Source: Heterodontus francisci (taxonomy: Eukaryota). From it: a DNA stretch of 64,000 bases. This document shows positions 6,741 through 9,700 of the stretch, piece by piece. A model generated the notes under the pieces. It ran no database searches, was not told where the DNA came from, and worked only from the letters and a program-made list of their open reading frames with translations. The stretch covers positions 11,966,001-12,030,000 of the forward strand of contig NC_090419.1 in the NCBI RefSeq assembly GCF_036365525.1. The letters run 5' to 3'. A program made the position numbers and the translations under genes. The first letter of the stretch is position 1. Every line of letters begins with the position of its first letter.

Positions 6741-9700
6741 TTATTCCTCCTCCTCTGCCCTTCTGTCCAGCGAGGAAGGATCGATGGCCACTTCCTCATA
6801 ATCCTTCTCGAGTGAGGCCATGTCCTCCCGTGCATCCTGGAACTCCCCTTCCTCCAGCCCCTCCCCCACGTACCAGTGGACAAAGGCCCGCTTGGCGTAC
6901 ATCTTATCGAATTTGAGGTTGATGCGGGTCCAAGCCAAGGAAATGGCGGTGGTGTTGCTCAGCATACAGAGGGCTCGCTGCACCTTTGCCAGATCACCCC
7001 CTGGTACCACCGTCGGTGGCTGATAGTTGATCCCAACCTGTGCAGTGGGGAGGAAAGAGATTACATTAGATTCAGCTACATAAGCAGAAGTTTCAAAATC
7101 AGATGTTTGTTGCCAAATAGATTCTAAAAAGGCTAAAGTTATGAACTGGGTTGCATCTTTCACTGGACGAGAATAAGCTCGAGTTATTCACTGGGCTCTT
7201 CTAGGTTTGAAGCTTCAGTTTCTGATCGAAGATGCAGTGAGGCTGCATTCAGAATCTAACTGAGATCCATATTGCACCTTTTCAAATGTGACCCTGATTG
7301 TCAGGAAGACATTTTCTCATTTCAAGGCAGGACTTCTCCTGGGACTGTCAAGCCTGCAATCAAGGATTGAAGCTGAGATAATTCTGTTGAAAGCCTCAGC
7401 CTCTTTGGGCCAGCAATGGAGAGTGTCTGTTACTTTACACTTCCAGAATAGAGGGAAAAGTTTTGATCCAGACTGAACAGACATACTGTTCACATGTGAG
7501 ATGAGATTGACACAATCCATGTTTGGCCAGGGCTCCATGGATTGGACAAAACAAAACACACTTACCTTGAACCCAGTCGGGCACCAATCAACAAACTGGA
7601 TCGAGCGCTTGCTCTTGATGGTTGCAATGGCAGCATTGACATCCTTGGGCACCACGTCTCCTCGGTACAGCATGCAGCACGCCATGTACTTTCCCTGGCG
7701 GGGGTCGCACTTCACCATCTGGTTGGCTGGCTCGAAGCACGCGTTGGTGATCTCCGCCACCGACAGTTGCTCGTGGTAAGCCTTCTCGGCCGAAATAGTG
7801 GGCGAGTAGGTTACCAGCGGGAAATGAATTCGGGGATAGGGGACCAGGTTGGTTTGGAACTCAGTCAGGTCCACGTTGAGGGCACCGTCGAACCGCAGCG
7901 ACGCCGTGATGGATGACACTACCTGTCCAAGGAGACGGTTGAGGTTGGTGTAGGTCGGTCGCTCAATGTCAAGGTTACGCCGACATATGTCGTAAATGGC
8001 CTCATTGTCAAACATGAAGGCGCAGTCAGAGTGCTCGAGGGTGCAGTGGGTGACGAGTACGGCGTTGTACGGCTCGACCACCGCGGTGGAAATCTGGGGC
8101 GCGGGGTAAACGGAAAACTCCAGTTTGGATTTCTTGCCGTAGTCGACGGAGAGTCTCTCCATCAGGAGGGAAGTAAAACCTGAGCCGGTCCCACCCCCGA
8201 AACTGTGGAAGATGAGGAAACCCTGCAGTCCAGTACACTGGTCAGCCTGTGGGTAAACAAAGTACAAAATATTAAACTGGAGCCCGAAATTCCATCTGTT
8301 GCCAAAGAGCAGTGACCACCTGGTGGCACAGGGCCGTGGGAGGTGCTGAGTTGGGCCTGTGGGAGCCCGGAGGGAAGGTTTAATGGGAGCCGGGTGGAAG
8401 TAGTGAGGAACCATGGGTGGATAGGGGTGCCGGCACTAAGCGTGCCGTTCGGGTTGGGGAAGGAAGGGTCAAAGAAATTCCGCGCCTCTTTTCATGGGTG
8501 ACTGGTCACAGGAATATTGGAGAGACATCAGTAGTGATATCGGAGTGAATGCGTAGTATAGTTGCATCACATGGCCATTTGTAAGATTTCATTTGGACAA
8601 AGACAATGGGATAGTGGCCAGTGGTAAATGGTGAGACAGGACATTGGGTGCTGCTGGAATTTGACAATGTCCGCCTTTACACAACTTACCAGCTTCCGTA
8701 TGCGATCCAAGACCAGATCTACAATCTCCTTGCCGATGGAGCAGTGGCCCCGTGCATAGTTATTAGCCGCGTCCTCCTTGCCGGTGATGAGCTGCTCGGG
8801 GTGAAAGAGCTGTCGGTAGGTGCCGGTACGGACCTCATCTGGGGACAAGAAAGAGAGATTTAAAAACATGAAAACAGAACATTCGAGCAAATTTGATGCC
8901 TTCAGGGCATATTTCAGAGTTTAATGAGAGCACTGACTCATTGTCATTGAAACATACATGATTCTGAAGGGGCTTGACAGGGCAGACACTGAGGTTGTTT
9001 CCCCTGATTGGGAAATCTAGAAAACGAGGGTAGTCTACGAATAAGGGGCTGATCATTAAGGACTGAGATAAGGAGAAATTTCTTCATTCAAGTGGTTATT
9101 AGTCTTTGTATTTCTCTACCCCAATGGGTTGTCAATGCTCCATCACTGAATATATTTAAGGCTGAGATAGACAGATTCTTGCTCTCAGGGAATCATGCCT
9201 CTGGGGAGCGGGCGTGAAGGTGGAGTTGAAGTTGGAGATCAGCAATGATTATATTGAACGGTGGAGCAGGCTCAACAGGCCGAATGGTCTACTCCTGTTC
9301 CTATTTCTTATATTCTTATGACCAACCCATCAACAATCACTCCTCTTACCAACCACAGTGGGCTCCAGATCTATAAACACGCCTCGGGGGACCTGTTTGC
9401 CTGCCACCGTCTCACTGAAGAAGGTGCTGAAGGAGTCATCGCCACCCCCGATGGTCTTGTCACTGGGCATCTGTCCATCCGGCTGGATCCCATGCTCCAG
9501 GCAATACAGCTCCCAGCAAGCGTTGCCGATCTGTACACCGGCTAGGCCAATGTGGATTGAAATACACTCACGCTAAAGAAGGAAGAACAGGTAATGTTTT
9601 ACACAGGATGGAGGGCAATGCTTTATAGTTAGTATAGGTGGGAAGAGAAAGCTGCAAAGAAACTCATTCCATTACAGTAACTTGTGGATCCCATCCATTC

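Follow-up and report, generated by a model that had tools for sequence, protein, structure and literature searches.

Known vertebrate alpha-tubulins that are encoded without a terminal tyrosine, such as TUBA4A, keep the residues required by TTL and can in principle rejoin the tyrosination cycle. A locus of the shark Heterodontus francisci raises the question of whether this also holds for the tyrosine-less alpha-tubulins that it encodes. The stretch of DNA analysed (64,000 nucleotides of contig C49, hereafter the window) contains a tandem array of alpha-tubulin genes on the minus strand, with a spacing of about 7 kb. Seven copies are complete (6741..10200; 14840..18243; 21544..25005; 29228..32631; 35923..39326; 42627..46089; and 50312..53710, whose promoter is more diverged). 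Each is composed of five exons, namely an exon 1 whose coding part is ATG alone, followed by exons of 223, 149, 681 and 297 nt, with AG/GT at exons 2-5, a single stop and a product of 450 aa. A three-gene block of 21 kb was duplicated recently, at 97.9% identity (14138-33263 and 35230-54330). An eighth, truncated copy (1158..2004, minus strand, ATG at 2004) has exons 1 and 2, with substitutions, inside the window and exon 3 past its edge, and exons 4-5 are missing from the interval up to the next gene. Degenerate exon-2 remnants (82-87% identity) are found upstream of two copies (10878-11041 and 2710-2800), and degenerate reverse-transcriptase-type retroelement fragments and low-complexity repeats, recognised by eye from translations, lie between and beside the genes (4200-5700 and 54300-64000). 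The outermost copies of this array, on either side of the window (C49:11,953,000-11,960,300 and 12,031,000-12,048,300; L013-L015), have introns of 3-7 kb and intact frames.

In the copy at 6741..10200, taken here as the example (minus strand throughout), the ATG (10198..10200) is followed by exon 2 (9350..9572), in which K40 is retained as in all window copies, by exon 3 (8690..8838), which carries Y108C (8743-8741) plus T109S, and by exon 4 (7566..8246, codons 126-352), which carries H309Q (7697-7695). Exon 5 (6741..7037, codons 353-450) encodes helices H11-H12 and carries E386L (6938-6936), H393L (6917-6915), E420D (6836-6834), L397K, M413L, S419Q and A427S. Upstream, a promoter-like region (10201..10500) has, by consensus matches alone, five CCAAT boxes 87-298 nt before the ATG and, closer to it, a TATAAA at 63 nt; the promoter motifs of the copies (TATA, CCAAT, MYB-like in 4/8, E-boxes) are not informative on tissue.

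The preliminary description stated that every complete copy stops after E450, where canonical alpha-tubulin continues with Y451, and this is indeed so in all seven (tail Y432-E450 plus TAA at codon 451; 6741..6800, minus strand, in the example). Their tails contain VAID(S/P), residue 439 being P in the copy at 6741..10200 and S in the other six. Canonical 451-aa genes from this genome can be aligned to the array copies without any gap, their TAT (Y451) falling opposite TAA, so the residue numbering holds. A single TAT/TAC to TAA transversion would be the simplest origin of this stop. The replacement motif SSLDRRA had been read correctly (S441 at 6773-6771, R444-R445 at 6764-6759), but not its span, since it replaces VEGEGEE (residues 440-446) rather than VEGEGEEEG, with a separate change of G448 to E. 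The glycines of the canonical tail are absent. A lower tail charge had been proposed and is borne out, with -3 versus -7 for residues 439 to the end; the net charge is +2 versus -1 in helix H11 and -17 versus -24 over the whole chain. All seven copies have an AATAAA poly(A) signal at a distance of 121 nt past the stop (6614..6619 in the example).

Two routes back to a tyrosine were considered and rejected: (i) an alternative last exon, as no acidic-acidic-aromatic-stop sequence ([DE][DE][YF]-stop, such as EEY) is present in any minus-strand frame of the window, and (ii) read-through to a TAT past the stop, as this TAT is found in 8 window-type copies alone and the others have GTT, GAT or AAA. 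The helical tail predicted by AlphaFold for the H. francisci protein P0129 (mean pLDDT 41) was disregarded.

The genome contains 32 last exons of this clade, 27 on C49 (11.70-12.03 Mb), four on C1300 and one on C463. Of these, 29 belong to genes in which exons 2-5 follow one another in order, the splice sites are canonical and the frame is free of internal stops; the remaining three comprise two cut at an inversion junction and the C463 gene. Their endings are RRAEEEE(E) in 31/32 and DYLAEEGV in one, with Tyr or Phe in none, in agreement with the genetically detyrosinated end first proposed. As this tail type recurs in 31 of the 32 last exons and in shark and skate species from other orders, it is not a chance feature. 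When 28 intact genes were compared with one window copy, dN/dS was 0-0.19 at dS 0.02-0.20: the 29 intact copies are under purifying selection. Were C1300 a duplicate of part of C49, as it may be, 25 intact genes would be left. Elsewhere in the genome, 13 intact alpha-tubulin genes (C51, C7, C25; two broken matches on C4 and C36 excluded) end in Y (9), F (2), I (1) or C (1), so that the clade represents 29/42 modelled intact alpha-tubulin genes, about two thirds. RefSeq names the clade genes 'alpha-1/1A/1D/8-like'. Both the approximately 30-fold gene amplification and the changes reaching into the folded body had escaped the preliminary description.

Part of this amplification is a second array of the same clade (C49:11.70-11.81 Mb, L001-L012, and C1300, L018-L020), built from a 12.7-kb two-gene unit in which one gene type carries K40Q (CAG, 9 copies) and the other encodes 451 aa. 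K40Q, a laboratory mimic of acetylation, occurs in 9/29 intact genes, none of them in the window. At C49:11,722,000-11,727,000 (L003-L004), two copies limited to exons 4-5 face apart at a head-to-head inversion junction, which is a real palindrome or an assembly join. The C463 gene (234,000-251,000; L037, L017) is a diverged clade member matching P0098, with a basic loop near residue 40 (KTNGRMRRYRTARGG), a rewritten 280-300 region and relatives in 11 other elasmobranch species. Outside the clade, further alpha-tubulins (C7:12.59-12.68 Mb, L028-L031; C4, L035) have H309R and the ends EEI, EEF and DEC, the copy on C4 being broken.

The clade members are alpha-tubulins, with the GGGTGSG motif, an MREC N-terminus and 91% identity over 432 residues to the canonical genes of the genome; for P0129, the matches to alpha chains in PDB reach E<1e-250. 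Relatives were collected from two protein searches (best 120 of 7863 and best 120 of 4542) and from cluster look-ups (15 of 36 members). The preliminary description had proposed a search for this tail in other chondrichthyans, and it is conserved there: the matches listed place the clade in 15 species, each of them a shark or a batoid, belonging to Amblyraja, Leucoraja, Rhinoraja, Pristis, Heptranchias, Heterodontus, Chiloscyllium, Hemiscyllium, Stegostoma, Rhincodon, Carcharodon, Cetorhinus, Scyliorhinus (two species) and Mustelus. No chimaera or bony-fish member was seen among these matches, and the closest named proteins were P0129 and P0133 of H. francisci itself. At least 18 proteins of the thorny skate (Amblyraja), some of which may be isoforms, belong to the clade, which is therefore amplified in skates too. 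No description of the clade was found in the open-access literature, shark-directed searching included.

Membership was assigned, in a set of 172 proteins no longer than 700 aa, with the marker Q419+L413, which involves no contact residue. This marker was present in 48 proteins, 44 of which have an in-register tail: 40 end in E, two in V and two in A, none is aromatic, and 41 have K or R after position 438. By comparison, the 117 other alpha-tubulin tails end in Y (106) or F (7) for the most part. With tails removed, the clade forms a single branch (SH-aLRT 99 in a quick tree of 60 rows; 100/100 with 25 rows). It contains two subgroups, one with RRAEEEE/RKAEEEE tails and a more diverged one that is also devoid of the Glu-Glu end (DYLAEEGV, LDVMPEKGE); most skate members retain an acidic Asp441. 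It stands apart from the TUBA4-like gene of the genome (L032) and fish tuba4-like rows (99; 100/100), in trees from which named mammalian TUBA4A is absent, and it does not group with sauropsid TUBAL3-type chains (turtle and bird representatives), whose tail VGRDSADG... is not shared.

A candidate sister is a single-copy elasmobranch paralog that bears the tyrosine (C7:12.42 Mb, L025; cluster of P0184, 26 members). It ends DSADLDREEY, so the arginine of the clade tail, although present as first described, is not unique to it. Like skate clade members, this paralog starts its tail IDSADLDR; it shares 14 clade residues versus at most 7 for other paralogs, and joins the clade at 84/90 in the tailless tree. 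It differs in retaining Tyr, Y108, H309, E386, H393 and E420 and in having no intron after codon 352. The sister position is to be read with caution, as the alternative grouping of the clade with a 5-exon gene on C25, which shares the intron after codon 352, was not rejected (p-AU 0.27). The paralog starts MHEC instead of MREC, a change that may affect tubulin mRNA autoregulation.

Are the substitutions of the clade placed where the enzymes of the cycle bind? Window copies and two canonical genes show 43 fixed differences, 35 of them within residues 1-438. According to PMC3563685, the alpha-tubulin contacts of TTL are H393 (with TTL R51), R390 (H54), H309 and E386 (R66), P175, E433, E207 and R308, while E441 and E449 anchor the tail and E450 occupies the active site. 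The same source reports that the TTL mutant R66E shows weak binding and no activity in neurons, that bare tail peptides are tyrosinated by TTL at 50-fold lower efficiency, and that E445 is the main polyglutamylation site; its authors conclude that tail length and composition are likely without effect on tyrosination. All 29 intact genes have Q309, L/F386, L393, S/Y441 and R445. Thus 3/8 contacts of the body docking surface are changed (H309Q, E386L/F, H393L), including both partners of TTL Arg66, and the proximal acidic anchor is missing (S441 in 20/29, Y441 in 9/29), although D443 might substitute for it. P175, E207, R308, R390, E433, E449 and E450 are retained in 29/29. For VASH2, whose contacts are given as E433, H393, E386, Y108, E420 and E414 (excerpt of PMC9750192), four of six are changed (Y108C, E386, H393, E420D).

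These changes distinguish the clade from other alpha-tubulins. Indeed, E386, H393 and E420 are retained in 0/48 clade proteins versus 118, 105 and 122 of 122 others, and E386 is kept in 183/188 other chains, tyrosine-less ones included; H309 is more labile, being variable in 30/101 other tubulins and retained in 5/45 clade proteins. Across 188 other alpha-tubulins (including P0130, a truncated clade member), 256 positions are invariant to at least 95%, and six of these are changed clade-wide: Y108C, E386x, L397K, M413L, E420D and A427S, all of which we take to lie on the outer surface. The eight invariant TTL/VASH2 contacts include three of these six (P about 4e-4); within H11-H12 (380-433), 3/6 contacts are among 11/54 changes (P=0.09). 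Both P values are post hoc, because the substitutions were already known when the contact lists were consulted. Loss of the tyrosine alone does not bring such changes, since the 448-aa tyrosine-less PDB chain 1z2b_A retains Y108, H309, E386, H393, E420 and E441, and the tyrosine-less bird TUBAL3-type proteins P0248, P0255, P0256 and P0258-P0260 retain Y108, E386, H393 and E420.

The enzymes themselves are encoded in the same genome. TTL (on C3) retains N10, S12, R36, R44, H54, P56, R66, R73, A75, S76 and S152, but at the tubulin-contacting positions 51 and 46 it has Thr and Lys instead of Arg (C3:171,867,018-171,867,174, L044); its exon 2 is followed by a GC donor. Because of Thr51, the H393-R51 stack is already absent for every tubulin of this shark, which weakens the argument drawn from H393 for TTL. 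Exons of VASH1 and VASH2 are present, and VASH2 retains H257, F259, R288 and R291. Among nine beta-tubulin ends read from a weak search with an alpha query, no amplified partner was seen. Two diverged beta-tubulins on C32 (L053, L054), with the ends GEEAEEEELGGEEN and AQYYVDEAEDDES, are possible partners.

The reading that we favour, with moderate confidence and from sequence comparison, is that the clade is an elasmobranch alpha-tubulin isotype that is synthesised in detyrosinated form and predicted to be hard to re-tyrosinate. With the Arg66 partners H309 and E386 and the E441 anchor gone, TTL would bind the free dimer weakly, and weak docking would leave the chain detyrosinated. Microtubules of this isotype would also carry fewer glutamate side chains, and cytosolic carboxypeptidases, given their specificity, could trim the EEEE end further. 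Where microtubules are rich in the isotype, less kinesin-13 and CAP-Gly protein, described as tyrosine-dependent readers (excerpt of PMC9917122), would be recruited and the lattice would be more stable. A more far-reaching version is put forward tentatively, as somewhat less than an even chance: the isotype, older than the shark/ray split, may stand wholly outside the tyrosination cycle, as a gene-encoded 'stable microtubule' code (no Tyr, no TTL/vasohibin docking, E445R, some K40Q) amplified in tandem in sharks and skates for one cell type, probably of the germ line.

The tissue involved was sought in RNA data and in the literature. A search of RNA runs listed 15 candidates, each matching fewer than half of the query words, and four runs compared with the last exon and its 3' flank yielded seven pieces of 40-60 nt, all less than 95% alike. 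The word 'tubulin' is absent from the text of a testis proteome paper (PMC13052469), and nothing on the clade was found in the supplements of PMC13188829, PMC11589584 and PMC12318234. The number of copies suggests that the cell concerned requires a large amount of this tubulin at one time. From this and from a chicken testis precedent (cited in PMC9081340), our guess, about an even one, is germ cells, spermatids first. By analogy with TUBA4A, which serves the platelet marginal band (excerpt of PMC6374996), the marginal band of blood cells would be another guess.

Resistance to TTL has to be weighed against what the clade has kept, namely the Glu-Glu end and five TTL body contacts, as well as Asp441 in most skate proteins. 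These point to a rather unlikely alternative in which the isotype, like TUBA4A, is born without tyrosine and receives it from TTL, so that it would differ in starting state and tail charge alone. Indeed, the Glu-Glu end required by TTL is kept in 29/29 genes, together with R390, P175, E207, R308 and E433, and a tail of altered length or composition is likely to be tolerated (excerpt of PMC3563685). However, neither partner of TTL Arg66 is conserved and E441 is replaced, E386 is otherwise nearly invariant even in chains without tyrosine, and the diverged subclade has lost the Glu-Glu end as well. A silent array, or one in collapse or partly due to an assembly artefact, that gives no functional protein seems highly improbable, even though no RNA run supports expression and truncated copies, exon-2 remnants, the inversion junction and the small contig C1300, which repeats the 12.7-kb unit, would all fit it. 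It is opposed by the 29 intact genes with canonical splice sites and dN/dS of 0-0.19 at dS up to 0.2, and by the persistence of clade and tail type in sharks and batoids, with the thorny-skate proteins among them.

The pattern of contacts is accounted for about as well by a general remodelling of the outer surface (P=0.09 within H11-H12). According to a third explanation, the outer elements H3', H11, H12 and tail were reshaped for another partner, a motor or a microtubule-binding protein acting in a specialised array (of spermatids, of oocytes or of the marginal band of red cells), and the loss of Tyr and of TTL/VASH contacts was a by-product of relaxed constraint. All six clade-wide changes at invariant positions do fall in outer elements, H11 passes from -1 to +2, contacts are not significantly enriched within H11-H12, and E420 is a kinesin-4 contact (excerpt of PMC9451533). 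In the open-access literature, no paper was found on a kinesin footprint with Y108/S419/E420, E414/E420 alone being supported. The use of TUBA4A in the platelet marginal band (excerpt of PMC6374996) would also fit, the TUBA4-like gene of this genome (L032) ending EEY. As a primary explanation it is nevertheless improbable, since the partner is hypothetical; it is also compatible with the favoured reading, because loss of TTL binding would follow either way.

If resistance to re-tyrosination is true, the isotype would be a natural reagent for permanently detyrosinated microtubules without knockout of TTL, which is lethal in mice. It would also test the TTL and VASH2 docking models against a long natural substitution, spanning some 270-300 million years.

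Several known systems share part of these features. The flagellar alpha-tubulin family of Naegleria is likewise multi-copy and without terminal tyrosine (excerpts of PMC2115128 and PMC9081340), but it belongs to an unrelated protist lineage, in which the tyrosine is on beta-tubulin, whereas 0/9 beta-tubulin ends of the shark (from the same weak search) are Tyr. Closer to the clade is the divergent testis-specific alpha-tubulin of chicken (Pratt, Okamura, Cleveland 1987), a vertebrate gene reported to be without coded tyrosine (cited in PMC9081340). Bird TUBAL3-type proteins, which we guess to be this chicken gene, end DEE and are also tyrosine-less; they are separate from the clade and keep Y108, E386, R390, H393, L397 and E420, with R or C at 309. 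TUBA4A, proposed in the preliminary description as the precedent, does share a gene-encoded detyrosinated end in Glu-Glu (excerpts of PMC3563685 and PMC6374996), but the precedent is incomplete, as TUBA4A keeps both acidic TTL anchors (excerpt of PMC3563685) while the clade changes contacts and has lost E441 in 29/29 genes. The TUBA4-like gene L032 ends EEY, its orthology being judged by the tail alone. TUBA4A is a single-copy gene, and the chain 1z2b_A (PDB name 'Tubulin alpha chain'), which we take to be TUBA4A, has no basic tail residue in its aligned part. To judge from the sequences, the clade would behave like TUBA4A at birth and, not being its ortholog in the trees, appears to depart from it in the TTL anchor and in the docking surface.
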